Notes under the pieces: model-generated
Seen by the model: the letters and a program-made list of their open reading frames with translations, nothing else
The model's database searches: none
Told to the model about the DNA's origin: nothing
In this document: positions 1-18,208 of the stretch, in pieces
How positions within the stretch are numbered: position 1 is the stretch's first letter
How the letters are laid out: the number at the start of each line of letters is the position of its first letter
IMG/VR virus record: IMGVR_UViG_2879754190_000001
DNA length: 18,208 nucleotides
Direction: 5' to 3' (one strand)
Source of the DNA: a virus
Taxonomy: Duplodnaviria; Heunggongvirae; Uroviricota; Caudoviricetes
Translations under genes and position numbers: made by a program

Positions 1-45
1 GTGATAGTCTTAATACTAGTTTTTAGACTTGTCATTGGAGAACAG

Positions 46-477
46 ATTATTGATGTCTTAGGGCCGGAGAAACGCAGACGGCGTACCACACAGGAAAAGA
101 TCGCAATTGTTCAGCAGAGCTTTGAACCGGGGATGACGGTCTCCCTCGTTGCCCGGCAACATGGTGTAGCAGCCAGCCAGTTATTTCTCTGGCGTAAGCA
201 ATACCAGGAAGGAAGTCTTACTGCTGTGGCCGCCGGAGAACAGGTTGTTCCTGCCTCTGAACTTGCTGCCGCCATGAAGCAGATTAAAGAACTCCAGCGC
301 CTGCTCGGCAAGAAAACGATGAAAAATGAACTCCTCAAAGAAGCCGTTGAATATGGACGGGCAAAAAAGTGGATAGCGCACGCGCCCTTATTGCCAGGGA
401 TGGGGAGTAAGCTTAGTCAGCCGTTGTCTCCGGATGTCGCGTGCGCAGTTGCACGTCATTCTCAGACGAACCGATGA
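46..477 (+). pseudogene. insC: IS2 orfA (InsC-like), defective: expected ATG start is ATT at 46-48, and a 1-nt loss in the G-run at 397-400 removes the normal stop so the frame reads on to 477
   Basis: Translation [91 protein letters not shown]...; A6G slippery heptamer at 363-369; orfB lies in the +1 rather than the -1 frame relative to orfA. Confidence 0.8.
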
Positions 478-1270
478 CTGGATGGATGGCCGCCGCAGTC
501 GTCACACTGATGATACGGATGTGCTTCTCCGTATACACCATGTTATCGGAGAGCTGCCCACGTATGGTTATCGTCGGGTATGGGCGCTGCTTCGCAGACA
601 GGCAGAACTTGATGGTATGCCTGCGATCAATGCCAAACGTGTTTACCGGCTCATGCGCCAGAATGCGCTGTTGCTTGAGCGAAAACCTGCTGTACCGCCA
701 TCGAAACGGGCACATACAGGCAGAGTGGCCGTGAAAGAAAGCAATCAGCATGGTGCTCTGACGGGTTCGAGTTCTGCTGTGATAACGGAGAGACTGCGTG
801 TCACGTTCGCGCTGGACTGCTGTGATCGTGAGGCACTGCACTGGGCGGTGACTACCGGCGGCTTCAACAGTGAAACAGTACAGGACGTCATGCTGGGAGC
901 GGTGGAACGCCGCTTCGGCAACGATCTTCCGTCGTCTCCAGTGGAGTGGCTGACGGATAATGGTTCATGCTACCGGGCTAATGAAACACGCCAGTTCGCC
1001 CGGATGTTGGGACTTGAACCGAAGAACACGGCGGTGCGGAGTCCGGAGAGTAACGGAATAGCAGAGAGCTTCGTGAAAACGATAAAGCGTGACTACATCA
1101 GTATCATGCCCAAACCAGACGGGTTAACGGCAGCAAAGAACCTTGCAGAGGCGTTCGAGCATTATAACGAATGGCATCCGCATAGTGCGCTGGGTTATCG
1201 CTCGCCACGGGAATATCTGCGGCAGCGGGCTTGTAATGGGTTAAGTGATAACAGATGTCTGGAAATATAG
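434..1270 (+). pseudogene. insD: IS2 orfB (InsD-like transposase catalytic part) with an internal out-of-frame patch at about 748-793
   Basis: 278-aa ORF matching InsD except residues [14 protein letters not shown]; the expected [14 protein letters not shown] (first Asp of the DDE motif) is readable in a different frame of the same nucleotides, implying a 1-nt and a 2-nt deletion flanking the patch. Confidence 0.8.
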
Positions 1271-1326
1271 GGGCAAATCCAGTATAAGCCATTATCAAAC
1301 CCACCCGTAGATAGGCTTTGTAATGG

Positions 1327-1637
1327 CTACTTCTTCAGAAATGATTCGATGAATTCACGTCGAGGATGACGATAGTTCAGAATATCTTCTGGCATCCTCA
1401 TAAAGCGGTTGTTGCCGTCTTTGGCAGTAACAAAACAGCTGTGAACTCCGCAGACATCCGTTTTGATCGTGTCGCTATACTCAAAAAGCAACTGAGCCAT
1501 CTTCTCTTGCCATTCTGGAGGCATAGCCTCCATGAATACTCGCGGCATCACGCAGAACGACGCATGCGTAAGACCAAACCACAGTTGCAGGTCTTTACGA
1601 TATTCTTCATCCATCGTCTTTACCTTTGTTGCAATGA
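1327..1637 (-). pseudogene. C-terminal fragment (about 103 codons) of an unidentified gene, N-terminally truncated by the IS911 insertion
   Basis: Minus-strand ORF 1327-1710 whose first 24 codons are IS911 terminal sequence; the remainder (IIATKVKTMDEEYRKDLQLWFGLTHASF...MPEDILNYRHPRREFIESFLKK) has coding-like composition. I do not recognise the family. Confidence 0.3.
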
Positions 1638-1709
1638 TGAAGTGGCACACTGAATTTGGCCACCTGAACAGAGGTGATATGCTCACCTCAGAACAACACA
1701 GGTGCTCCA

Positions 1710-1904
1710 ATGAAAAAAAGAAATTTTAGCGCAGAGTTTAAACGCGAATCCGCTCAACTGGTTGTTGACCAGAAATACACGGTGGCAGATGCCGCCAAAG
1801 CTATGGATGTTGGCCTTTCCACAATGACAAGATGGGGCAAACAACTGCGTGATGAGCGTCAGGGCAAAACACCAAAAGCCTCCCCATTACCCGGAACAAA
1901 TTGA
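1710..1904 (+). pseudogene. IS911 orfA (OrfA/InsN-like), frameshifted by 1-nt deletions; slippery heptamer reduced from A6G to A5G at 1959-1964
   Basis: [59 protein letters not shown] then premature stop; the remaining OrfA sequence [21 protein letters not shown] is readable in the +1 frame from 1900. Confidence 0.8.
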
Positions 1905-2004
1905 AATCCGTGAGCTCAGGAAAAAGCTACAACGCATTGAAATGGAGAATGAAATATTAAAAAGGCTACCGCGCTCTTGATGTCAGACTCCTGAACAGTT
2001 CTCG

Positions 2005-2394
2005 ATAATCGGGAAACTCAGAGCGCATTATCCTGTGGTCACACTCTGCCATGTGTTCGGGGTTCATCGCAGCAGCTACAGATACTGGAAAAACCGTCCT
2101 GAAAACCAGACGGCAGACGGGCTGTATTACGCAGTCAGGTACTTGAGCTACATGGCATCAGCCACGGTTCGGCCGGAGCAAGAAGCATCGCCACAATGGC
2201 AACCCGGAGAGGCTACCAGATGGGACGCTGGCTTGCTGGCAGGCTCATGAAAGAGCTGGGGCTGGTCAGCTGTCAGCAGCCGACTCACCGGTATAAACGT
2301 GGTGGTCATGAACATGTTGCTATCCCTAACTACCTTGAAAGGCAGTTCGCCGTGACCGAACCAAATCAGGTGTGGTGCGGTGATGTGACCTATA
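2005..2394 (+). pseudogene. IS911 orfB, 5' portion (exon 1 relative to the intron), containing one further frameshift near 2115-2119
   Basis: [33 protein letters not shown] (frame 1) then ...[66 protein letters not shown] (frame 0), ending exactly at the intron 5' junction. Confidence 0.75.
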
Positions 2395-3062
2395 GTGTGC
2401 CCGGAGTTCAGGGCGGGCATGGATGCTTAAATGAACCGCGAGTCTGTCTGGAATATTGAACCGGTAACTCACGATGAGAAACCCAACAATCCCACCGGGT
2501 GTGACGGTGGAGAACCTGAGCGGCAGTGACCTGCGGCATGCCCGCAGGGTGATGTAACCCGCTGACAACGGGGATTGAGGCGAGATCACTAAGCCGAGAT
2601 GATCCTCAAGGTTAAGTACTGAAAGGCTGAAGAACATGAACCCGTTAATCCGCCTCTGTGGGTTGAAAACGTCACCACGGCCTACGTGATCTGACAGGCC
2701 GTGCAGGAGGAACTGGCAGTGATACGTAAGCACTGCCGGTCGAAGGTGTTTTGACATGTATGCGAAACACCGGGGCAGCAGCGTCTATCACACTTGCGTT
2801 GCTGACTTCTGCCAACTTGCGGCAAGCAAGGATAAAGAGTGCGACGGGCAGCCTCCTCAGTATGCCTGAGTCCGGCAGGTAAACCGGGAAGGTCAGCGAC
2901 GGATGTTAAGGGGCATGGCTCCGATGACGCGCTGGCTGGCGGAGCTTCCGTAGTAGTCCGCGATGGGGAAAGCCCATTACATGGCGAAGGGAAGCAGTTT
3001 GAATGTGTTTGCGACGTGAATTAACTGACCTAACGAGGTGAAGACCTTTGATAATCAGCGAA

Positions 3063-4570
3063 ATGCAACGCAAGCTTGCCACATGGGCAGCCACCGATCC
3101 GTCCCTACGGATTCAACGGCTGCTGCGTCTGATAACACAACCAGAATGGCTGGCTGAAGCGGCGCGGATCACGCTTTCATCAAAGGGGGCCCATACCCCC
3201 GGCGTTGATGGCGTGAACAAAACAATGCTACAGGCCAGACTGGCTGTTGAGCTGCAAATCCTCAGGGATGAATTACTCTCAGGCCACTACCAGCCCTTGC
3301 CCGCCAGACGGGTTTACATCCCTAAAAGCAACGGCAAACTGCGACCACTGGGTATCCCCGCGTTGCGGGATCGTATTGTTCAGCGGGCCATGCTGATGGC
3401 GATGGAGCCGATATGGGAGAGTGATTTTCATACGCTCTCATATGGCTTCCGGCCTGAGCGCAGTGTCCACCACGCGATCCGCACGGTGAAATTACAGCTC
3501 ACAGACTGTGGTGAAACCCGGGGACGCTGGGTGATTGAAGGCGACCTGTCCAGTTACTTCGACACCGTACATCATCGACTGCTGATGAAGGCTGTACGCC
3601 GCAGGATCAGTGACGCACGTTTCATGACTCTGCTGTGGAAAACCATCAAGGCGGGACATATCGATGTCGGTCTCTTTCGGGCGGCCAGTGAAGGTGTGCC
3701 ACAGGGCGGTGTTATATCGCCGCTATTATCGAACATCATGCTGAATGAGTTCGATCAATACCTGCATGAGCGCTACCTGAGCGGGAAAGCCAGAAAAGAT
3801 CGGTGGTACTGGAATAACAGTATCCAACGGGGCCGAAGTACGGCGGTCAGAGAAACTGGCAGTGGAAACCCGCGGTGGCGTACTGCCGCTATGCCGATGA
3901 TTTTGTCCTCATCGTCAAAGGCACCAAAGCACAGGCGGAAGCCATCAGGGAGGAGTGTCGGGGTGTGCTCGAAGGCAGTCTGAAACTCAGGCTGAACATG
4001 GATAAGACTAAAATCACCCATGTTAATGACGGCTTTATCTTTCTGGGGCACAGGATCATTCGCAAACGCAGTCGTTATGGCGAGATGCGAGTGGTCTCAA
4101 CGATCCCGCAGGAGAAAGCCAGAAACTTCGCCGCATCGCTGACAGCACTGTTATCAGGCAACTACAGTGAAAGCAAAGTCGATATGGCTGAACAACTCAA
4201 CCGAAAACTGAAAGGCTGGGCCATGTTCTATCAGTTCGTTGATTTTAAGGCCAAAGTCTTCAGTTATATCGACCGTGTCGTGTTCTGGAAGCTGGCTCAC
4301 TGGCTGGCCCGCAAATACCGTACAGGTATCGCTTCCCTGATGAGGTGGTGGTGTAAATCACCGAAACCGGGTCAGAGCAAAACGTGGGTTTTATTTGGTA
4401 AAACCAATCACGGCAAGCTCAGCGGCGAAATACTGTACCGGTTGGTGGGGCAAGGCAAGAAGCTGTTCCGCTGGCGGCTACCCGAAGGTAATCCCTATCT
4501 GAGGACGGAGACCAGAACACGTATACATCGCGCTTTACAGAAGTGGCAATGGCGTTCGCCAGGCATTTAA
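3063..4570 (+). pseudogene. Group II intron-encoded reverse transcriptase/maturase, split by a frameshift near 3850-3860; no HNH endonuclease motif seen
   Basis: RT motifs GVDGV, RRVYIPKSNGKLRPLGIPALRDRIVQ, SYGFRPERS, GDLSSYFDTV and GVPQGGVISPLLSNIMLNEFD in one frame; YADDFVL, LNMDKTKITHV, GFIFLGHRI and the maturase-like C-terminus in the -1 frame. Confidence 0.8.
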
Positions 4571-4575
4571 ATGGA

Positions 4576-4609
4576 GAGCCGGATGCGCTGAAAGGTGCAC
4601 GTCCGGTTC
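4576..4609 (+). other. Group II intron catalytic domain V hairpin (part of the ribozyme RNA)
   Basis: GAGCCGGATGCGCT-GAAA-GGTGCACGTCCGGTTC: 34 nt, AGC catalytic triad near the base, GAAA tetraloop, close to the domain V consensus; sits about 50 nt from the intron 3' end. Confidence 0.75.
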
Positions 4610-4631
4610 GGGGAGGAGAGCAGGGAAATAG

Positions 4632-5138
<507 letters not shown>

Positions 5139-5146
5139 CCACTTCA

Positions 5147-6115
5147 CCTTTCTTTCCGAACCTTGTTGATCACCTTCTGGTTAAGCATCACACGGCTGAT
5201 GGCGTTGAAGATGGCATTTCAATCTGCTACTTCAAGCCATACTCGCAAGGCCGTGCTCGCTGGCAGGGTGACACAATCCACGGCGTGTGGTTTGACGAAG
5301 AGCCACCATACAGCATTTATGGCGAAGGTCTTACCCGTACCAACAAATACGGGCAATTCTCAATTCTGACGTTTACCCCGCTGATGGGGATGTCTGACGT
5401 TGTTACCAAGTTCCTGAAGAACCCCAGCAAGTCGCAGAAAGTGGTCAACATGACCATCTATGACGCTGAGCACTATACCGACGAGCAGAAAGAGCAAATC
5501 ATCGCATCATATCCCGAGCATGAGAGAGAGGCGCGTGCTCGCGGTATTCCTACGATGGGTAGTGGTCGAATCTTCCAGATACCGGAAGAGACGATTAAGT
5601 GTCAGCCGTTCGAGTGTCCTGATCACTTCTACGTAATTGGCGGGATGGATTTCGGATGGGATCACCCACAGGCGCAAGTTCAGCTTTGGTGGGATAAGGA
5701 GGCAGACACAATCTACGTTTCACGCGTGTGGAAGGCGAAAGAAAAAACAGCCGTTCAGGCGTGGGGAGCCGTTAAATCATGGGCGCATAAAGTGCCAACC
5801 GCATGGCCTCATGATGGAAACCAGCACGAGAAGGGCGGCGGTGAGCAGCTCAAAGGGCAGTATGCAGACGCTGGATTTATGATGTTGCAGGAGCATGCGA
5901 CATGGCCTGATGGCGGTAACGCTGTTGAGCCAGGCATCACTGAATTGCGCGACATGATGCTCGATGGTCGCTTCAAAGTATTCAATACCTGTGAGCCATT
6001 CTTTGAGGAGTTCCGCCTCTATCACCGTGATGAAAACGGGAAAATCGTCAAGCTTAACGACGACGTGCTATCCGCCGTTCGCTATGCATACATGATGCGC
6101 CGCTTCGCAAAATGA
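5147..6115 (+). pseudogene. P22-like terminase large subunit (gene 2 equivalent), C-terminal about 322 codons only; the N-terminal ATPase region is missing, replaced by IS911
   Basis: Open frame begins exactly at the IS911 right end; the terminase assignment rests mainly on its position immediately upstream of the portal gene (gene order 2-1-8-5), with VIGGMDFGWDHP consistent with a nuclease-type acidic motif. P22 gp2 is about 499 aa. Confidence 0.75.
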
Positions 6116-6186
6116 TGCGCGACATCAAAAAACCAAAAGAGAAAAAGATACCAGCCCCAATCAGGCCCATCGCACGGAGAACTTAA

Positions 6187-8352
6187 ATGGCCGACGAAAA
6201 CAGACTCAATTCCATTCTGTGTAAGTTTGACGCAGACTGGATGGCGAGCGATGAAGCCAGAACCGAGGCGACAAATGACCTGTATTTTAGCCGAGTGTCG
6301 CAATGGGATGACTGGCTATCAAACTACACTACCCTGCAATATCGCGGACAATTCGATGTTGTTCGCCCGGAGGTCAGGAAACTGGTCGCAGAGATGCGCC
6401 GGAACCCTGTCGACGTTCTCTTCCGACCCAAAGACGGCGCTAATCCTGATGCAGCCGATGTATTGATGGGGATGTATCGTACTGATATGCGCCATAACAC
6501 GGCAAAGATTGCCGTTAACGTTGGCGTTCGTGAGCAGATAGAGTCAGGCGTTGGTGCATGGCGTCTGGTCACGCAGTACGAAGACAACGATCCAACAAGC
6601 AACAATCAGGTAATCCGACGCCTGCCAATCCATGAAGCCTGCTCACACGTCATATGGGACGCCAACAGCAAGCAGATGGATAAGAGCGACGCTAAGCACT
6701 GCACGGTGATTAACGCCTTGTCGCGCAATGGCTGGAAAGAGTTCGCAGAGGATTACGGTATTGACCCGGATACCCTGCCATCTTTCCAGAATCCTAACGA
6801 TACATGGCTATTCCCGTGGGTGTCGAATGATGTCGTCTACGTCGCTGAGTATTACGAGGTAGAAGAGGAGAAGGAGAAGGTCTTCATCTACCGCGACCCG
6901 CTGACAGGTGAGCCGGTCAGCTATTACCAGCAGGATATCAAAGACGTCATCGACGACCTGGCTAATCGTGGATTCATTAAGGTAGCAGAGCGCAAGGTGA
7001 AGCGTCGGCGTGTGTATAAGTCGATCATCACCTGTACGCAGATACTGAAAGACCGCGAGAAGATAGCCGGAGAGCATATTCCAATCGTTCCAGTGTATGG
7101 CGAATGGTCATTCGCTGGTGACAAGGAGTGCTACGAGGGTGTGGTAAGGCTGACGAAAGACGGTCAACGCCTTCGTAACATGATTATGTCGTTCAACGCC
7201 GATATTGTTGCTCGGTCACCGAAGAAGAAACCGACCTTCTTCCCTGAGCAAATCGAAGGCTACGAATACATGTACGGCGGAAATGATGACTATCCGTACT
7301 ATCTGCAGAACAGGACTGATGAAAACGGTAACGACCTGCCGATTGGTCCAATCTCCTACATGGAAAACCCTGAAGTGCCGCAAGCCAACGCTTACATGCT
7401 TGAGGCTGCCACCAACGCAGTGAAAGAAGTGGCTAGTCTTGGCGTGGATGCGCAGGCGGCAAATGGTCAGGTCGCTTTTGATACCGTCAATCAACTGAAC
7501 ATGCGGGCAGACCTTGAGACATACGTGTTTCAGGATAACCTGGCTACCGCAATGCGACGTGATGGCGAGATTTATGCCTCAATGGTCAACGATATTTATG
7601 ACGTTCCTCGTCATGTAACGCTGACACTTGAAGATGGAAGCGAGAAAGACGTTCAACTCTATGCGCAAGTTGTCGATTACCAGTCCGGCAATGTGGTCAC
7701 ACTCAACGACATTCGCGGTCGATATGAGTGCTATACAGACGTTGGGCCATCCTTCCAGAGTATGAAGGAACAGAACCGCGCAGAGATTCAGGAGTTGCTC
7801 ACCAAGGTTCCGCAAGGTACTCCAGAGTTCCAGATGCTGATGCTGCAATACTTCACGCTGCTTGACGGTAAAGGCGTCGAGATGATGCGAGAGTACGCGA
7901 ACAAGCAACTGGTGATGATGGGGCTGAAGAAACCAGAAACACCTGAAGAGATGGAGATGGTGCAGCAGGCACAACAACAGCCGCAGCAGCCATCAGCAGA
8001 GCAAATTCAGGCGCAGGGTATCCTTCTGCAAGGTCAGGCTGAATTGCTCAAGGCAGAGAACCAACAGGCGCAGATTCAGGTTGAAGCTGCCAAGGTTGAA
8101 GCCCAAAACCAACTCAACGCCGCGAAGATTGCAGAAATATTCAACAATATGGACCTCGACAAGCAGGCAGAACTGCGTGAGTACCTCAGGCTCGTAGGTC
8201 AATTCCAGCAACAGCGCAGCAAAGATGCTCGTGCTAACGCTGAGCTGCTTCTTAAAGATGCAGACCAGACTCATTCACAACGCATGGATTTCGCGAATCT
8301 TATGCGTCAAGTTCAAATCCCCTCCGGCGGAGTAGCCGAGACACCTCAATAA
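6187..8352 (+). CDS. Portal protein, P22 gp1 family (721 aa)
   Basis: Near-colinear similarity to the P22 portal as I recall it (MADENRL...[12 protein letters not shown]...[12 protein letters not shown]...[23 protein letters not shown]...[15 protein letters not shown]...NAELLLK...VAETPQ); GGAG RBS 8 nt upstream. Confidence 0.95.
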
Positions 8353-8365
8353 GAGAGAGTTAATC

Positions 8366-9277
8366 ATGGACCAAACCACCGACATTCAGGCTTCTGAAGA
8401 ATTAACCCTGCCCGGCAATCATGCAGCGGCATCTGCTGATGGCTTAGTTGTCGATAATGCCAACGACAGCGCAGGTCAGGAAGAAGGCTTTGAGATTGTC
8501 CGGAAAGACGATGAGAAACCAAAACAAGACCCGGCAACTAATGCTGAATTTGCCCGTCGCCGCATCGAACGCAAACGCCAGCGTGAGCTTGAGCAGCAGA
8601 TGGAAGCGGTTAAGCGTGGAGAGTTGCCGGAGCACCTGCGGGTGAACCCTGAGTTACCAAAACAACCAGACCCTAACGATTATCTTTCCGAAGATGCACT
8701 GGCTAAGTACGACTATGACCAGAGCCGCGCACTGGCTGCCTTCCAGCAGGCAAACAGTGAATGGCAGATCAAGGCTATGGACGCACGAAGCCAGGCTGTC
8801 GCCGAGCAGGGTCGCAAAACTCAGGAGTTCACCCAGCAATCAGCGCAATACGTCGAGGCGGCCCGTAAGCACTACGAGGCAGCGGAAAAGCTCAATATCC
8901 CTGACTATCAGGAGAAAGAGGATGCATTCATGCAACTGGTGCCGCCAGCAGTCGGTGCCGACATCATGCGCCTCTTCCCGGAGAAATCCGCCGCTCTCAT
9001 GTATCACCTTGGTGCTAATCCTGAGAAAACACGCCAGTTGCTGGCGATGGACGGGCAATCCGCGCTGATTGAACTCACTCGACTGTCAGAACGTTTAACT
9101 CTCAAGCCTCGAGCCAAGCCTGTTTCAGAAGCCCCGTTACCTGATGAACCCATTCAGGGACATGCTGTTGCTGCAAATATCTCTGCGATTGAAAAGCAGA
9201 TGGAGGCGGCAGCAAACAAAGGGGATGTAGAGACGTACCGCAAGCTCAAGGCGCAACTGAATAAAGGAATTCGATAA
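8366..9277 (+). CDS. Scaffolding protein, P22 gp8-like (303 aa)
   Basis: Position between portal and coat; same length as P22 gp8 (303 aa); charged, helix-rich composition; stop overlaps the coat start (TAATG). Confidence 0.8.
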
Positions 9278-10572
9278 TGGCATTAAATGAAGGTCAACTG
9301 GTCACGTATGCTCTGGATGAAATCATCGGAACCGTCCAGAACCTGACGCCAATGGCGTCAAAAGTGACAAAATACCCCCCTCCGGCAGAATCCATGCAGC
9401 GTTCAAGCAACACCGTGTGGATGCCTGTTGAGCAGGAAGCGCCAACCCAGACTGGCTGGGATTTAACTGGCAACGCAACCGGGATTCTGGAACTCTCCGT
9501 GAAGTGCAACATGGGCGATCCGGATAACGATTTCTTCGAGCTTCGTGCAGATGACCTGCGTGATGAGCGTTCTTACCGTCGCCGCATCCAGGCATCCGCC
9601 AAAAAACTGGCGAATAACATTGAGTCAGCGATTGCCAAACAGGCAACTGAAATGGGCTCGCTTGTTGTTCACGATACCCGCGCAATTGGTCCATCGACTG
9701 GCCTGCCTGGCTGGGATTTTGTGTCTGATGCAGAGCGACTGATGTTCTCCCGTGAGCTAAACCGCGACATGGGCATCAGTTACTTCCTGAACCCTGACGA
9801 TTACCGCAAAGCAGGCCGCAACCTGGTAGATGGTGACATCTTCGGGCGCGTTCCTGAAGAAGCATATCGAAACGGTACTATTCAGCGTCAGATTGCTGGC
9901 TTTGATGAAATTCTTCGCTCACCGAAACTTCCGGCAGTTACCAAGTCAACCGCGACTGGTGTAACTGTTTCTGGTGCGCAGAAGTTTAAGCCGCAGGCAT
10001 ACACCCTTGATACCGATGGTAACAAAGAGAACGTCGACAACCGTGTTGCAACGGTGACCGTATCCTCCACCACCGGATTTAAGCGCGGCGACAAAATCAG
10101 CTTCATTGGTGTGAAGTTCCTGTCTCAGATGGCGAAGAATGTGCTGACTGATGACGCGACTTTCTCAATCACCCGTGTGATCGATGGTACTCACATCGAA
10201 ATCACGCCGAAGCCGATTGCGCTGGATGACGCGTCACTGACAAAAGAAGAGAAGGCTTACGCTAACGTAAACACCTCTCTTGCTGATACCACTCCGGTAA
10301 ACGTTCTGAACGTGGCAACAACCACCGCTAACGTGTTCTGGGCTGATGACTCAATCCGCCTGCTGTCTCAGCCGATCCCGGTAACCCATGAACTGTTTGC
10401 TGGCATGAAAACGTCTTCCTTCAGCATTCCAGGTATTGGTGTTAACGGCATCTTCGCAACGCAGGGTGATATCAACACTCTGTCTGGTAAGTGCCGTATT
10501 GCTGTGTGGTATTCAGCATGTGCTGTACGACCAGAGGCAATTGGTGTTGGTCTGCCTAACCAGACCGCGTGA
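9277..10572 (+). CDS. Major capsid (coat) protein, P22 gp5-like (431 aa)
   Basis: Position and length (P22 gp5 is 430 aa); translationally coupled to the scaffold gene; followed by a strong intrinsic terminator. Confidence 0.85.
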
Positions 10573-10580
10573 TAACCAGA

Positions 10581-10604
10581 GGGAGCTTCGGCTCCCGTTT
10601 TTAT
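10581..10604 (+). terminator. Rho-independent terminator/attenuator after the coat gene
   Basis: GGGAGC-TTCG-GCTCCC perfect 6-bp GC-rich stem with a UUCG tetraloop, followed by GTTTTTAT; sits 9 nt after the coat stop codon. Confidence 0.6.
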
Positions 10605-10616
10605 CTGGAGACAAGC

Positions 10617-10841
10617 ATGACACACATGATCTTTCGTCATGGCGACATGAAGAAGTGGAAAGGCGTTGGCTACGACTTTGAAATCGTGAAAGCCGAAGAG
10701 CTTCAGGAATATCTGGATGCTGGCTGGTTTTCACATCCTGATGACCTTTTGAAGGATGTTGCAGAGCCAGAAGAAAAACAGCGTAAAAAGCCTGGTCGAA
10801 AACCTAAGGCGGCAGCAGATGAACCTGACAACGAAGGGTGA
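10617..10841 (+). CDS. Small hypothetical protein (74 aa) between coat and gp4
   Basis: ATG with GGAG 7 nt upstream, just after the terminator; [74 protein letters not shown]; overlaps the gp4 start by 23 nt in another frame. Confidence 0.35.
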
Positions 10842-11319
10842 TTTAGTTCTTGCGGCATTACGTAAGCTCGGTGTTGCATCAAATGCCACGTTAACCGATG
10901 TCGAACCGCAGTCTATGGAAGACGGCGTCAACGACCTTGAAATGATGATGGCTGAATGGCTTGGCGGTGATGCGTCACCTGGTATCAACGTTGGCTACAT
11001 TTTTGCTGATGCAGATGTTGCTCCGGATCCGGGCGATGAGCACGGTTTATCAAATAACGCTATCAATGCCGTCATTTTCAACCTTGCCTGCCGAATTGCT
11101 CCAGATTATGCGCTGGAAGCGTCTGCAAAACTTATAACCACTGCCAGATACGGGAAAGAGCGACTCGTCAAACTGTCTGCAATGGACAGGGCAAAAGCAG
11201 CTAAATGTAAGTCCGGTTATCCAAACCGTATGCCTGTTGGTAGTGGTAACCAGTTGGCGAAGTGGAATGGTTGGAATTACTTCCACCGAAAGGAACCTTG
11301 CGATAACGGGAGCGAATAA
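10819..11319 (+). CDS. Head completion / tail accessory protein, P22 gp4-like (166 aa)
   Basis: [33 protein letters not shown]...[14 protein letters not shown]...; length matches P22 gp4 (166 aa) when started at ATG 10819 rather than the upstream ATG at 10756. Confidence 0.75.
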
Positions 11320-12737
11320 TGCCTATTCAGCAACTTCCGCTTATGAAAGGTGTCGGCAAAGACTTCCGAAACGCCGACTATATCGACTATCTGCCAGTGA
11401 ATATGCTGGCTACACCCAAAGAAATCCTGAACAGCAGCGGATATCTTCGCTCATTCCCGGGCATTGCCAAACGTTCTGACGTGAACGGTGTATCTCGCGG
11501 CGTCGAGTACAACATGGCGCAGAATGCTGTTTATCGCGTGTGTGGCGGCAAGCTGTACAAAGGAGAAAGTGAAGTCGGTGATGTTGCCGGAAGTGGTCGT
11601 GTATCAATGGCGCATGGTCGGACATCACAGGCGGTAGGCGTTAATGGTCAACTGGTCGAGTATCGCTATGATGGCACGGTCAAAACCGTCTCAAACTGGC
11701 CTACAGACAGTGGATTCACTCAGTATGAGTTAGGTTCAGTTCGCGACATTACGCGCTTACGTGGGCGTTATGCGTGGTCAAAAGACGGAACTGATTCATG
11801 GTTTATCACTGACCTTGAAGACGAATCTCATCCTGACCGTTACAGCGCACAATATCGTGCCGAGTCTCAGCCTGACGGCATCATCGGTATCGGGACATGG
11901 CGAGACTTCATCGTCTGCTTTGGTTCATCGACTATTGAATATTTCTCCCTGACTGGCGCAACCACCGTTGGTGCCGCTTTGTATGTTGCACAACCATCGC
12001 TGATGGTGCAGAAAGGCATTGCCGGAACTTACTGCAAAACGCCATTCGCTGATTCGTATGCGTTTATCAGCAATCCGGCAACGGGTGCGCCGTCTGTGTA
12101 TATCATCGACTCCGGTCAGGTGTCACCAATTGCCAGCGCGAGCATTGAGAAAATCCTCCGCTCCTACACTGCTGATGAACTGGCTGATGGTGTGATGGAA
12201 TCGCTGCGATTTGATGCTCATGAGTTGCTGATTATCCACCTTCCGCGTCACGTCCTCGTGTACGACGCATCTTCAATCGCCAATGGCCCACAATGGTGTG
12301 TGCTGAAAACAGGTCTGTATGACGATGTGTACCGCGCTATCGACTTCGTTTACGAAGGCAATCAGATAACGTGCGGCGATAAGCTGGAATCTGTTACCGG
12401 GAAACTGCAATTCGATATCAGCAGCCAGTACGACAAGCAACAGGAACACCTGCTGTTTACTCCACTCTTCAAAGCGGATAACGCCAGAGTGTTCGACCTT
12501 GAGGTTGAATCGTCAACTGGCGTTGCGCAGTACGCCGACCGCCTTTTTCTCTCTGCAACCACTGACTGCATCAATTACGGGCGTGAGCAGATGATTGAGC
12601 AGAATGAACCGTTCGTTTACGACAAGCGTGTTTTGTGGAAGCGAGTAGGGCGCATCAGGAAAAATGTCGGCTTCAAATTGCGCGTTATCACGAAGTCACC
12701 TGTCACTCTGTCTGGCGCTCAGATAAGGATTGAGTAA
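11319..12737 (+). CDS. Tail accessory protein, P22 gp10-like (472 aa)
   Basis: Position after gp4; same length as P22 gp10 (472 aa); TAATG start/stop overlaps on both sides. Confidence 0.75.
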
Positions 12738-13534
12738 TGGCTGATTCGAATCTCAATGTGCCGGTAATCATCCAAGCTACGCGGCTCGATACATCAGTCC
12801 TTCCACGCAATATCTTCTCGCAGTCGTATCTGCTTTACGTTATCGCACAGGGCACTGATGTTGGTAACGTGGCTAACAAAGCCAACGAGGCCGGACAGGG
12901 CGCTTATGATGCACAGGTCAGGAACGATGAGCAGGATGTGATTCTCGCTGACCATGAGCAGCGAATTTCTGCTGCGGAAGCAACGCTTGTTAATCATGAG
13001 GAGCGAATCAGACAGGCAGAATCAACTCTTCAGGACCATGAAACACGAATAGCTCAGAATGAAAGCGATATTTCGTCGCTTGACACAAGAGTTCAGTCGC
13101 TGGAGTCGCAGGTTTCAGACCATGAAACGCGCATCGATGCTCTGGAGTATGCAACCACACGCAAGAAGTCAGAGGTTGTTTACTCTGGTGTATCTGTAAC
13201 CATCCCGACAGCGCCGACCAACCTTGTTAGCCTGCTGAAAACGCTCACACCGTCATCCGGCTCGTTGGCACCATTCTTCGACACCGTTAACAACAAGATG
13301 GTTGTGTTCAACGAGAACAAAACCCTGCTCTTCAAGTTGTCGATTGTCGGCACGTGGCCCAGCGGAACCGCCAACAGGTCAATGCAGCTAACCTTTTCCG
13401 GCTCTGTTCCTGACACACTGGTCAGCAGTCGTAATGCGGCGACAACAACCGACAACATCCTGTTAGCTACGTTCTTCAGCGTGGATAAAGACGGCTTTCT
13501 TGCCACAACCATCAAGATAATCGCGGAGCAGTGA
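12737..13534 (+). CDS. Tail needle (P22 gp26 family) with a conserved N-terminal domain, coiled-coil repeats and a divergent C-terminal domain (265 aa)
   Basis: N-terminus [43 protein letters not shown]...[20 protein letters not shown] matches the gp26 N-terminus as I recall it; central DHE.RI heptad-type repeats; the C-terminal 120 aa do not resemble P22 gp26. Confidence 0.8.
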
Positions 13535-13989
13535 TGATTACATTCAAACCAACGCGAAACATCGACCTGATAGAAGCAGTCGGAAATCACCCTGACATTA
13601 TCGCCGGGAGCAACAACGGTGATGGATACGACTACAAACCTGAATGCCGTTACTTTGAGGTGAACGTGCACGGTCAGTTTGGCGGCATTGTTTACTATCA
13701 GGAGATTCAGCCGCTGACATTAGATTGCCACGCCATGTACCTGCCAGAGATTCGCGGCTTCAGCAAGGAAATTGGGCTGGCGTTCTGGCGATACATTCTG
13801 ACTAACACCACCGTTCAGTGCGTAACATCGTTCGCTGCACGCAAATTCCGACACGGTCAGATGTACTGCGCAATGATTGGCCTTAAGCGTGTAGGAACCA
13901 TCAAGAAATACTTCAAAGGCGTGGATGACGTGACTTTTTACAGCGCCACACGCGAAGAACTAATCGACTTCCTGAATCACGGGAGATAG
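13534..13989 (+). CDS. Hypothetical protein in the P22 gp14 position (151 aa), Cys/His-containing
   Basis: ORF coupled to the tail needle stop (TGATG); [25 protein letters not shown]...KPECRYFEVNVHGQFGG...LDCHAMYLPEIRGF...; assignment by position only (P22 gp14 is 176 aa). Confidence 0.5.
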   Translation: MITFKPTRNIDLIEAVGNHPDIIAGSNNGDGYDYKPECRYFEVNVHGQFGGIVYYQEIQPLTLDCHAMYLPEIRGFSKEIGLAFWRYILTNTTVQCVTSFAARKFRHGQMYCAMIGLKRVGTIKKYFKGVDDVTFYSATREELIDFLNHGR

Positions 13990-13991
13990 CC

Positions 13992-14684
13992 ATGTTATAT
14001 GCATTTAAGCTGGGCAGAAAACTGCGCGGCGAGGAACCTTATTGCCCTGAAAAAGGCGGGAAAGGTGGCAGTTCTGATAAAAGCGCAAAGTATGCAGCAG
14101 AAGCCCAGAAGTATGCTGCAGACCTGCAAAATCAGCAGTGGCAGACGATCATGAAAAACCTTGCTCCGTTCACGCCTCTTGCGGAGCAGTATGTTAACCA
14201 GCTTCAGAACCTTTCCAGTTTAGAAGGTCAGGGGCAGGCACTTAATCAGTATTACAACTCTAAGCAGTATAAAGACCTTGCAGGGCAGGCGCGTTACCAG
14301 AGTCTTGCTGCTGCGGAGGCGACGGGTGGACTTGGTTCGACAGCCACAAGCAATCAACTGGCTACGATCGCGCCGACACTCGGTCAGTCTTGGTTATCAA
14401 ATCAGATGAGCAATTACAACAATCTGGCAAACGTTGGGCTTGGTGCGCTGCAAGGTCAGGCAAACGCCGGGCAGACGTACGCCAACAACATGAGCAGCAT
14501 TGCACAGCAAAGCGCAGCTCTTGCCGCTGCTAATGCCAATAAACCATCAAGTCTTCAGACTGCAATTAGCGGTGGCACGTCTGGTGCGATTGCCGGTGCA
14601 GGTCTTGCCAGCCTTTTGGGAACATCAACGCCTTGGGGCGCTGGTATTGGTGCTGGTATCGGATTGCTTGGCTCGTTGTTTTAA
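13992..14684 (+). CDS. Ejection (internal virion) protein, P22 gp7-like (230 aa)
   Basis: Position and length (P22 gp7 is 229 aa); Q/A/N-rich low-complexity body with a glycine-rich hydrophobic C-terminus (GAIAGAGLASLLG...GAGIGAGIGLLGSLF). Confidence 0.6.
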   Translation: MLYAFKLGRKLRGEEPYCPEKGGKGGSSDKSAKYAAEAQKYAADLQNQQWQTIMKNLAPFTPLAEQYVNQLQNLSSLEGQGQALNQYYNSKQYKDLAGQARYQSLAAAEATGGLGSTATSNQLATIAPTLGQSWLSNQMSNYNNLANVGLGALQGQANAGQTYANNMSSIAQQSAALAAANANKPSSLQTAISGGTSGAIAGAGLASLLGTSTPWGAGIGAGIGLLGSLF

Positions 14685-14693
14685 GGGGGAATC

Positions 14694-16025
14694 ATGGCTA
14701 CTTGGCAAGGAACAAACGGCGGATTGTTGGCTGGTATCGGCGGCGTCAACTCAAACGCTCCGAGCGTAAATGACATCGGCAATACGCTTCAGCTTATCAG
14801 GCAGAACAATGATATTGAGCGTTCAGGCGCTAACAATGTTGGGCTGACTGCTTTGCAAGGTCTTTCAGGTATTGCGGGTGTTTTTCAGCAGGAAAAGCAG
14901 GCTCAGCGGCAGAAAGAATTTCAGCAGGCGTACGCTAATGCTTATGCGTCTGGTGATCGCGGTGCTTTGCGTCAGTTGGCTACTCAATATCCAGACCAGA
15001 TTGAATCCGTTCGTAAAGGCATGGGATTCATTGATGAAGAGCAGCGTAATTCTATCGGCACCTTAGCGGCTGGCGCACGCCTTGCGTCATCGTCTCCAGA
15101 AGCAATGCAATCATGGCTGCAAAACAACGCCGGTGAGTTAGCTCGTGTTGGCGTTAATCCTCATGACGTCGCTCAGATGTACCAACAGAACCCGCGGCAG
15201 TTCGGCGAATTTGTCGATCACCTGGGGATGAACAGTCTCGGGCCCGAAAAATACTTTGACCTACAGGATAAAATGCAGGGTCGCCAGGTTACCATGCGCG
15301 GTCAGGATCTGGATTCGCAAACCGCCGCTCGGAATCAGGCAATCACAATGCGCGGACAAGATATCCAGGCGAATTTAGGTCAGCAGCGCATTAATCTGGA
15401 CGCAGAAACAAACCGCATTAACAACGAAAATAAGCGCCTTGACCGGATGCTATCAGCAGAAACTAACGACCTGAAGCGCCAGGAAATACAGAGCCGCATA
15501 GCAGCCAACAACCAGCAGTTGCAGCAGAAGCAGCAAGCGCTAAATGATGGCTACAAAGACGGCATCAACACCCTCACAACCAGCATGTTCACTCTGAACG
15601 ATATCGTTAGTTCTCCTTCACTTAAGAGCATTACAGGCTTACGTGGAGTAATCCCCAACGTTCCAGGCTCACAGGCTGCAGACACTCAGGCACGACTTGA
15701 TACCTTTAAATCACAAGCATACCTGACAGCGGTTCAGGCCATGCGAGGCATGGGCGCACTTTCTGATGCCGAGGGCAAAAAGCTCGACCAGGCTGTTGGT
15801 TCGCTGCAGAACTCGCAGAGCGAGGAGTCCTTTCGTCGCAACGCTGGCGTCATCCTGAACACGCTCAACCAGAAGCGTAATGAGGCGGTTGGTAAGTACG
15901 TTCAGCAAAACGGTATCAAGCGAGTGGAAGCGCCTCAGGCTTCTATAGATTACCTGAAGCAGCACCCCGAGCTGTCAATCGACTTCATTAATCGCTACGG
16001 ATATCTTCCATCTTTGGGGCAGTAA
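14694..16025 (+). CDS. Ejection protein, P22 gp20-like (443 aa)
   Basis: Position in the conserved 7-20-16 order; Q/N-rich; GGGGG RBS upstream. Confidence 0.6.
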   Translation: MATWQGTNGGLLAGIGGVNSNAPSVNDIGNTLQLIRQNNDIERSGANNVGLTALQGLSGIAGVFQQEKQAQRQKEFQQAYANAYASGDRGALRQLATQYPDQIESVRKGMGFIDEEQRNSIGTLAAGARLASSSPEAMQSWLQNNAGELARVGVNPHDVAQMYQQNPRQFGEFVDHLGMNSLGPEKYFDLQDKMQGRQVTMRGQDLDSQTAARNQAITMRGQDIQANLGQQRINLDAETNRINNENKRLDRMLSAETNDLKRQEIQSRIAANNQQLQQKQQALNDGYKDGINTLTTSMFTLNDIVSSPSLKSITGLRGVIPNVPGSQAADTQARLDTFKSQAYLTAVQAMRGMGALSDAEGKKLDQAVGSLQNSQSEESFRRNAGVILNTLNQKRNEAVGKYVQQNGIKRVEAPQASIDYLKQHPELSIDFINRYGYLPSLGQ

Positions 16026-17756
16026 ATGGCTAATTACCGTGATTTGTTAGAGCAGGCTGGCGCACGTTACGGTGTGCCAGAAGGGTTGATGACTGCACTG
16101 GGTGCCAAGGAGTCTTCTTACAACCCTGCCGCAGTAAGCTCCGCCGGGGCTGTAGGATTGACTCAGGTCATGCCTGGGACATGGCGTGATATGGGTTATA
16201 CCGATGAGCAAATGCAAAACCCCGAATATCAGGCTGACGCTGGCGCGCGCTATCTGGCAAAGATGTACCAGCAGTTTGGTAACTGGCGTGACTCTCTTCA
16301 GGCTTATCACGACGGTCCCGGCAACGTTATGAAGGCAAAGCGTGGTGAATATACGCCAGGACCTGAAGGCCGCGGTTACGTTGATGATCGCTTTGCTCAA
16401 TGGGCTGGTGACCCGGTGACAGACTCAACAGTCGAACAGCGCGCCACCTCTGCAAAGGTACATCCTCAGCAAGACCCTAACAACCCGTTTGCACAACTGG
16501 AAGTACAGTCATCCGAACAAGTATCGGCATCAGGTGTGCAGTCAGACCCAAATAATCCATTTGCTCAGATTGAGCAGCAGGCAGCCAGTCAGCAGCCACC
16601 TCAACCCGTAAGTTCTGTCGCACCGAAACCTGTTCAGCAACAAACAGTTAATCAGGCCAATAATGCACCAACACGGGAAGAACCATCATTGATGCAACAA
16701 GCTGGCGATTGGCTCACTGGTGGTCAAAGTGCAGGGCAAATTGCAGAACAGGCTGGTCGTGGTCTGGTAAACATACCATTTGACGTATTGCAGGGTGGCG
16801 CAAGTCTGATTAATGCAATCAGTCAGGGGCTTGGGGGGCCAAAAGTATTGGATGATGTTTATCGTCCAGTAGACAGACCGACAGACCCCTACGCGCAAGC
16901 TGGAGAGTCAATAGGCGGTTATCTTGTTCCTGGAGCAGGTGTAGCTGGAAACATGGTCATTGGTTCTCTCGCTGACGCGGCGAATCAACGGGGTGATTTT
17001 GCCGAAAATGCCGCTATTAATGCCGGACTTAGCATTGCTACGCATGGCCTGATAAATGGCGTTACCCGTGGTGTTCGTGGTGCATCAAATATAATTAGTG
17101 GCAATAAAACATCTGCACAGAGAGCGACCACTGCGCCAACAGAAACATCACCATTCTCCGGTGATGCCGCTGCAGCAACAAATCCTGCGGTTCATGCCGC
17201 AGAGGCAAGAGTAGCACAAGGTGTACCAATGACGCCTGCGACGAAGAACCCAGAGGAAGTCGTTCGCACAGTAGCAGCACAAAAAAGGCCAAATCTCGCT
17301 TCATCGCTTGATGAACTAGATATCAATCCTCAGGCTGAAGTTCTGGAGTCTGCTGAAAGGCTTAATGTTGATTCATTACTCCCTTCACACTTTTCCGGGA
17401 ACGAGCAATACAAGGCAGTTGAGCAAGCAATCAAGTCCCGTGCGGGTTCTGCTCTACAGGTGCAGGAAAATGAAGCAATCAGGCAGCTAGCACAGGGCGC
17501 GGGTGAGATAATTGATCGCGTTTCCGGTGCAAAAGATGCTCTTGGTATGAGCGACAAGTTTATTGATACGGTCAATGGAAGAATGTCTGCGCTGATGAAA
17601 CGAAGCGACCAGCTTTATCGCAATGTTGAAAAGGCGATGCCTGCAGGTGCAAAAATTGATGCGCCATCAACAAGGTCAATGCTCAAACAGGTGGCAGAAG
17701 ATCTTGGCGGGATGAAAAACCTTGACCCTATTGAAAAGAGAGTTGAGGTAGCCTGA
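16026..17756 (+). CDS. Ejection protein, P22 gp16-position, carrying an N-terminal lytic transglycosylase (SLT) domain (576 aa)
   Basis: N-terminal ...[34 protein letters not shown]...[14 protein letters not shown]...AYHDGPGNV has the family-1 lytic transglycosylase motif pattern (ES / GLMQ-type / AYN-like); followed by a long A/Q/G-rich region. Confidence 0.7.
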
Positions 17757-17807
17757 GTTTAACGGACACTCCTTCCTGAAATAGAATGGCATCAGAAGGA
17801 GCTAATA

Positions 17808-17827
17808 ATGAGCAGAAAAACCCAACG
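17808..17827 (+). pseudogene. First 6-7 codons (MSRKTQR) of a gene truncated by the IS629 insertion
   Basis: AAGGAG RBS at 17796-17801, ATG at 17808, reading frame runs straight into the IS629 left end at 17828. Confidence 0.3.
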
Positions 17828-18208
17828 TGAACCGCCCCGGGAATCCTGGAGACTAAACTTCCTGAGAAAGAGGTAAACAGGATGACTAAAAATACTCGTT
17901 TTTCCCCCGAAGTCCGTCAACGGGCAGTCCGTATGGTTCTGGAAAGTCAGGGCGAATATGACTCACAATGGGCGACAATTTGTTCCATTGCCCCAAAGAT
18001 TGGCTGTACGCCGGAGACTCTGCGTGTCTGGGGTCGCCAGCATGAGCGGGATACCGGGGGCGGTGATGGAGGGCTCACCACCGCTGAACGTCAGCGTCTG
18101 AAAGAGCTGGAGCGTGAAAATCGTGAACTGCGCCGCAGTAACGATATCCTTCGCCAGGCTTCCGCTTATTTTGCGAAGGCGGAGTTCGACCGCCTCTGGA
18201 AAAAATGA
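17828..18208 (+). mobile_element. IS629 (IS3 family), left end plus complete orfA; the rest of the element lies beyond the window
   Basis: Left terminus TGAACCGCCCCGGGAATCCTGGAGACTAAACTTCCTGAGAAAGAGGTAAACAGG followed by an orfA matching IS629 OrfA from memory. Confidence 0.9.
17882..18208 (+). CDS. IS629 OrfA (transposase N-terminal DNA-binding protein, 108 aa)
   Basis: [108 protein letters not shown]; helix-turn-helix plus leucine-zipper-like C-terminus. Confidence 0.9.

Follow-up and report, generated by a model that had tools for sequence, protein, structure and literature searches.

A P22-like prophage remnant of Shigella flexneri carries an Sf6-type tail needle gene with a 51-bp deletion in its knob domain

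Introduction

In a working phage of the P22 type, the N-terminal domain of the tail needle would plug the tail-hub channel, a trimeric coiled-coil would form the shaft and, in needles of the Sf6 type, a TNF-like jellyroll knob would form the distal tip, influencing the kinetics of DNA delivery. The Sf6-type knob, which is a trimer with a TNF-like jellyroll fold and three binding sites occupied by L-glutamate, was described in 69 of 164 P22-like phages and prophages; these knobs show no more than 4.9% divergence as proteins and are confined to phages of Escherichia and Shigella (Leavitt et al., 2013; PMC3741392). The two types of needle tip, their mosaic exchange within the shaft, the structure of the knob and the weakness of the link between tip and host range are all published.

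The stretch of DNA analyzed here (18,208 nucleotides, hereafter the window) contains a gene that the original prediction described as a tail needle with a P22-like N-terminus, a coiled-coil shaft and a different, beta-rich C-terminal domain, a swapped tip that may mean a different host surface specificity. The locus raises the question of what this C-terminal domain is, and of whether the needle that carries it specifies anything about the host.

Identity and domain organization of the needle gene

The open reading frame at 12737..13534 (+ strand, ATG start, 265 amino acid residues) is a tail needle gene of the known Sf6 type, belongs to a P22-like (Lederbergvirus-type) prophage and is orthologous to gene 9 of Sf6 and gene 26 of P22. 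It matches PHROG 1030, "tail needle knob", with an E value of 2e-119, and it is flanked, in a P22-like late operon, by the gene for the homologue of the tail-hub protein gp10 (a 472-residue PF11134 gene, which ends at 12737) and by a gp14-like DUF2824 gene (which starts at 13534), in the same order as in Sf6 and P22 and within the syntenic series gp10-needle-gp14-gp7-gp20-gp16. The structure and the name of this needle family are already known and the exact protein is already public under the right name ("tail needle knob protein [Shigella flexneri]"), at least 343 contigs, spread over 635 index blocks, being recorded with it. Among their sources are the complete chromosomes CP034060.1 and CP037996.1, drafts assembled at NCBI and raw runs assembled by Logan. 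An antisense open reading frame (13180-13671, - strand, 163 residues) extends over knob-coding sequence and the first part of the gp14 homologue; it lies wholly inside well-supported genes of the + strand and was treated as a probable by-product of the coding strand.

The N-terminal domain, of the gp26 type common to P22-type needles, comprises residues 1 to ~73 (12737..12955, + strand), as delimited by alignment with P22 gp26, by the structures with PDB codes 8EAP and 2POH and by the DNA homology to phage APC_JM3.2, which extends to 12957. In residues 1-60, to which the original prediction had roughly confined the likeness, 49 of the 60 positions are identical to P22 gp26 (counted by hand from the alignment), and the likeness extends further, residues 1-137 being 58% identical to P22 gp26 as encoded in NC_002371 (E 3e-53). 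The structures of P22 gp26 match residues 1-144 of the window needle (E ~1e-43) and these matches end at residue ~144.

The shaft is a heptad-repeat coiled-coil formed by residues ~66-139 (12932..13153, + strand), in a region that aligns with the helical core of P22 gp26. The DHE.RI-type repeats noticed earlier at nucleotides ~12950-13150 resolve into four [DN]HExRI units, which start at residues 72 (nucleotide 12950), 86, 100 and 128 (ending at nucleotide 13147) and are spaced by 14 residues, or by 28 for the last pair, that is, by two and four heptads. Residues 66-140 show a clean 7-residue register, and AlphaFold2 predicts a single unbroken helix for residues 42-140, with pLDDT values up to 98. 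The same [DN]HExRI-type units are present in the first part of the P22 gp26 shaft (2POH, 3C9I), whose N-terminal tail-hub plug and helical core are homologous to those of the window needle.

From this point on the two proteins part: residues 141-233 of P22 gp26 form a different tip, and a one-to-one comparison of this segment with the last 126 residues of the window needle returned nothing significant (E 0.085), so the expectation that the C-terminus is unrelated to that of P22 was correct. The beta-rich knob that had been anticipated corresponds to the Sf6-type knob domain (13154..13531, + strand), which stands in place of the P22 tip and is incomplete, with 126 of the 143 residues that make up the domain in Sf6 (140-282). 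The comparison with Sf6-type knobs leaves little room for doubt about the family: Pfam PF16532 (Phage_tail_NK) matches residues 108-259 with 334.4 bits (E 1.6e-100; curated cut-off 27 bits), and the crystallized knobs of Sf6 gp9 (3RWN) and of the E. coli prophage HS1 (4K6B) match with E values of 1.2e-74 and 1.2e-73, respectively. The closest described relative is gene 9 of Shigella phage Sf6 (3RWN), which shares with the window gene 98.5% DNA identity, the N-terminal domain, a shaft length of 11 heptads, the knob family and the place between the gp10 and gp14 homologues. The window needle differs from it by the absence of Sf6 residues 256-272 and by its location in an IS-truncated chromosomal remnant, whereas Sf6 is a viable phage. 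It is, by descent, a member of the Sf6-type needle family, but a damaged copy.

A 51-bp deletion between short direct repeats

The first reading overlooked a shortening of the C-terminal domain, which has 17 residues more in all the complete relatives examined. Across 50,697 phage records and 5,426 complete genomes of E. coli, all full-length matches to the gene span 849 bp, whereas the window gene has 798 bp, and the alignment with Sf6 and with an E. coli prophage shows a single clean gap of 51 bp. Two copies of the 8-bp direct repeat TGCCACAA lie 51 bp apart in Sf6, in the E. coli prophage and in a sibling locus described below (L014), and the window retains a sole copy, at 13501..13508 (+ strand), which constitutes the deletion junction. 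The residues lost are those numbered 256-272 in Sf6 (ATNGSTLTIQSNGASFT), 17 amino acid residues in frame, and the reading frame is still open; outside the gap, three substitutions (T176S, F198L and S234A) distinguish the window protein from Sf6 gp9. The residues that contact glutamate (E146, K200, S248 and D250) and the S-R-N triad, at the distal tip, are kept at the same positions, as judged by alignment with the published residue list (PMC3741392). Since a 51-bp loss bracketed by short direct repeats is a signature of slipped-strand deletion, the Δ17 allele probably arose by mispairing between the two 8-bp copies.

The length of the knob is otherwise constant in the family. Among the 134 members surveyed, the knob of the complete proteins has 143 residues, the only other knob indel being a single-residue gap in one metagenomic sequence; two entries (P0034 and P0054) end early, at residues 246 and 238, and all remaining variation in length (267-345 residues) sits in the shaft, in multiples of 7 residues. 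The same pattern, a shaft that varies by whole heptads and a knob of 143 residues, is that of the family in the published account (PMC3741392); ~4,000 database proteins are annotated as "tail needle knob protein". Compared with this family and with the HS1 knob (4K6B), which is ~98% identical to the window knob over the retained residues, the window needle alone, among the complete proteins examined, has an internal knob deletion of more than one residue. Searches with the junction itself gave a concordant picture. With a junction-spanning probe, the top ranks among complete E. coli genomes were all two-piece matches of 121 bp, which represent the intact state (a contiguous match would rank first); an exact scan revealed no carrier among the species-representative genomes of the collection searched; and the two IMG/VR contigs that have the junction are both the same IS-flanked remnant.

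Predicted effect of the deletion on the knob

The 265-residue protein and an intact relative of 282 residues were modeled with AlphaFold2 from the same shallow alignment of 21 sequences, each as a monomer of what is an obligate trimer. The intact model shows a β-sandwich knob, with strands at residues 144-156, 198-206, 215-221, 241-248, 261-267 and 271-281, and recovers 3RWN in a Foldseek search (E 1.7e-20, target TM 0.77). In the 265-residue model the helix is predicted with confidence, and the knob (residues 142-265) has pLDDT values of 28-42, for a monomer and a shallow alignment, and retrieves no PDB match with Foldseek (best E = 3); this comparison has to be read in light of the fact that AlphaFold2 is an unvalidated predictor of the effects of deletions and that even the intact knob scored only moderately. 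According to the strand positions, taken from the model of the intact relative and not from a crystal structure, the deletion would take out the penultimate β-strand (261-267) together with its hairpin turn, and the last strand (271-281) would be shortened at its beginning. In the TNF-like jellyroll topology the penultimate strand sits in the middle of a sheet, and its loss should therefore expose the core of the knob. The Δ17 knob most likely can neither fold nor trimerise. That it still folds, for instance with the C-terminal strand TTIKIIA replacing the similar deleted strand STLTIQS, and that the needle is kept in S. flexneri as something useful, seems to us highly improbable; if it were true, the TNF-like needle knob would have a minimal form in nature.

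A prophage remnant cut at both ends by IS elements

Phage homology in the window is limited to 5144-17743. The phage genes, identified by homology and by Pfam domains, compose a P22-like prophage remnant (~5147..17743, + strand) with a 5'-truncated terL, portal, scaffold, coat, a small open reading frame, gp4, gp10, the needle gene, gp14, gp7, gp20 and a 3'-truncated gp16 homologue; ten consecutive open reading frames, from portal to gp20, are open. On the left, IS elements recognized by their transposase domains (1..5146, no strand assigned) truncate the terminase gene, whose remnant (5132-6115) matches the Terminase_6N profile only from position 68, with ~152 codons missing. On the right, the gp16 homologue is cut off after some 572 of 911 codons by an IS3-family element (17744..18208, + strand), which contains an HTH_Tnp_1 open reading frame (17882-18208) and has a multi-copy match in E. 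coli genomes, annotated "IS3 family transposase", that begins at about window position 17738. The TerL and gp16 homologues have 499 and 911 residues in phage APC_JM3.2, against 327 and 576 residues in the window. APC_JM3.2 served as comparator for the gp16 homologue in place of Sf6, whose gp13 is of a different mosaic type with no real similarity. Genes for a small terminase, lysis proteins, a tailspike or an integrase were not found in the window, and no tailspike gene was found in the flanks read of the sibling loci.

From 2737 to 18208 the window has the same sequence as CP037996.1 (locus L004, 100% identity), and the right flank of the remnant is the chromosomal series psiF-phoA-iraP-ddlA, which follows directly in L003 and L004 and beyond a further IS in L005 and L006. 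The remnant is therefore a dead P22-like prophage in the Shigella flexneri chromosome. Remnants of this kind are familiar, since small P22-like fragments with an Sf6-type needle gene, such as the defective prophage EC4113-1, were reported in more than 100 E. coli genomes, and their needle genes were considered "not exceptional" (Leavitt et al., 2013; PMC3741392). The window remnant is likewise a chromosomal fragment that retains the needle gene, but it differs from those of the EC4113-1 type in being borne by S. flexneri, in its own IS junctions and in the knob deletion. A literature search for an account of this S. flexneri remnant returned nothing specific.

The left border also includes a group II intron of ~2.27 kb (~2395-4659, + strand), which splits one IS into two parts (1637-2394 and 4660-5146) that are directly adjacent in L003 and L005-L008. 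The Rfam model RF00029, for the 3' domains of such introns, matches at 4574-4659 with 64.9 bits, and the end of this match coincides with the point at which the IS resumes. The reverse transcriptase/maturase of the intron appears to be frameshifted, judging from its spread over two overlapping open reading frames in different frames (3048-3983, with RVT_1, and 3875-4570, with the C-terminal part of RVT_1 and GIIM).

Sibling loci and the timing of the deletion

The homologue search returned a 296-residue S. flexneri protein (P0019) that has an intact knob and shares the three private substitutions of the window allele. Over ~12.6 kb, only 3 substitutions separate the contig that encodes it (L014) from the window; this contig begins at the boundary between terL and the IS, and its alignment with the window is unbroken across the junction between gp16 and the IS (~17743), up to 17824. 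All other differences between the two are of the slippage type: the 51 bp of the knob, a 42-bp tandem duplication, a 6-bp unit and 1 bp in a run of A. Chance could not restore a deleted segment of 51 bp, and the intact knob is therefore ancestral. As L014 is the same remnant and shares its right-hand IS junction with the window, the 51 bp were most likely lost in place, from a prophage already deprived of its right end.

Other changes in length were observed along the remnant. The tandem duplication in L014 is perfect (7811-7894, corresponding to about window position 12952) and adds two extra heptads to the shaft in the alleles P0019 and P0020, and two further alleles from S. flexneri and E. 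coli (P0022 and P0023) have one or two additional ANK units near residues 46-50. The window has AAAA at 6104-6112 where L014 has AAAAA, a loss of 1 bp (~6108) that stops the terL frame 24 codons early; in L014 and L009 this frame continues to the start of the portal gene. In the small open reading frame between coat and gp4, the unit GAGCCA is present once in the window (10761) and twice in L014, giving 74 and 76 residues, respectively, and the equivalent of this open reading frame in APC_JM3.2 is annotated with a repeat_region. The gp7 homologue (13992-14684) is full-length in the window, L004 and L014, and has an in-frame deletion of 84 bp at 14525-14598 in most of the sibling loci, L003 and L005-L012 (202 against 230 residues).

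Decay of the remnant is also visible in sibling strains in which the coat protein is truncated by an IS, to 383, 276 or 388 residues, and in L008, whose gp14 homologue is shortened to 107 residues. Adjoining the IS that truncates the coat gene we observed a gene for an acyltransferase-3 protein of 388-390 residues (635-2620 in L003, 791-1957 in L010 and 1623-3608 in L016), accompanied in L003 and L016 by a 154-residue integrase fragment. These were considered as a possible oac/int serotype-conversion module of the Sf6 kind, and this was rejected, because the acyltransferase is only 26% identical to Sf6 Oac and the integrase fragment does not resemble Sf6 Int.

Exchange of the needle tip and host specificity

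Over 5144-12957 and 13532-17743 the window shares 96-97% identity with phage APC_JM3.2, yet the needle of this phage is of the P22 type, with 233 residues. The identity on both sides places the exchanged module between about codon 75 of the needle gene and its stop codon, which points to a textbook case of mosaic exchange. The swap of the tip, proposed in the original prediction, is in this way confirmed and located. The different host surface specificity that was attached to it did not fare as well. P22 hybrids bearing the knobs of Sf6 or HS1 give normal yields and plaques on Salmonella, and P22 with a foldon-tipped needle is still infectious, with slower DNA delivery (PMC3741392). As the hybrids infect Salmonella normally, the idea has little support: the tip influences the kinetics of DNA delivery, and a role in specificity for the host species is not supported by the published experiments. 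For the window itself, the deletion in the knob and the lack of a tailspike gene, in the window and in the sibling flanks read, imply that this copy of the needle most likely specifies nothing at present.

Weighing of the explanations

Taking these observations together, we consider it very probable that the window contains an Sf6-type needle gene in a dead, IS-cut prophage remnant of S. flexneri, with a slippage deletion of 51 bp and a knob most likely unable to fold or trimerise. The succession of events would be the cutting of the prophage at both ends by IS elements within the S. flexneri chromosome and the loss of 51 bp by slippage between the 8-bp repeats, which would have kept the frame and removed the penultimate β-strand. 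The truncation of the prophage is directly observed, and the needle has presumably no function today. The frequency of the allele might be read differently, as database records of Δ17 (at least 343 contigs) far outnumber those of the intact sibling allele (3 contigs). This abundance could reflect a tolerated or favored allele; the clonal expansion of S. flexneri lineages explains it equally well. The short knob might be a functional, naturally shortened tip carried by a lysogenising phage, with an altered interaction with the envelope or altered kinetics of DNA delivery. The in-frame nature of the deletion and the intact reading frame, the retention of the glutamate-contact residues (PMC3741392), the wide occurrence of the allele and the tolerance of P22 to a tip as foreign as the foldon all speak in its favor. 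Nevertheless, it is largely refuted by L014, in which an intact allele sits in the same truncated remnant, so that the deletion post-dates integration and most likely also the truncation. Moreover, the junction was not found outside the remnant in phage records, IMG/VR, complete E. coli genomes or species-representative genomes, the length of the knob is otherwise invariant in complete proteins, a whole predicted β-strand is lost with a predicted collapse of the fold, and neither the window nor the sibling loci read offer a tailspike gene for a virion. We consider a functional short knob very unlikely.

Two other readings were weighed. One is that the gap is an artefact of sequencing or assembly and that the true gene is an ordinary Sf6-type needle of 282 residues, since a gap between short direct repeats marks a site prone to mis-assembly or to polymerase slippage during library preparation. 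However, independent sources, complete chromosomes and assemblies of raw runs among them, supply at least 343 contigs with the identical protein, and a repeat of 8 bp is far too short to mislead assemblers, which leaves this reading with practically no probability. The other is that the remnant has been domesticated, the block from portal to gp20, short needle included, being selected because it serves the host, for example through a product that is particle-like or acts on the envelope. Although the ten open frames of this block and the occurrence of the remnant in many strains would agree with it, copies that differ by ~3 substitutions per 12.6 kb point to youth, and not to purifying selection, as the reason why the frames are open. 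Loss is haphazard and ongoing (the coat gene by IS, gp14 reduced to 107 residues, the 84 bp of gp7, the terL frameshift of the window), and a complete terminase and a tailspike are absent from the remnant; domestication is thus hard to credit.

The dead, IS-cut remnant with a slippage-damaged needle is therefore our preferred reading, and the needle of the window probably exemplifies the usual decay of a prophage rather than a new means of recognizing hosts, with a deletion that probably ruins its tip domain. What it adds to the published picture of P22-like needles is a clean and datable instance of prophage decay, an in-frame, repeat-mediated deletion in a structural domain of an already truncated remnant, with several other slippage events within the same few kilobases. 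It also calls for caution, as an open frame with a strong match to a protein family can still encode a broken protein.
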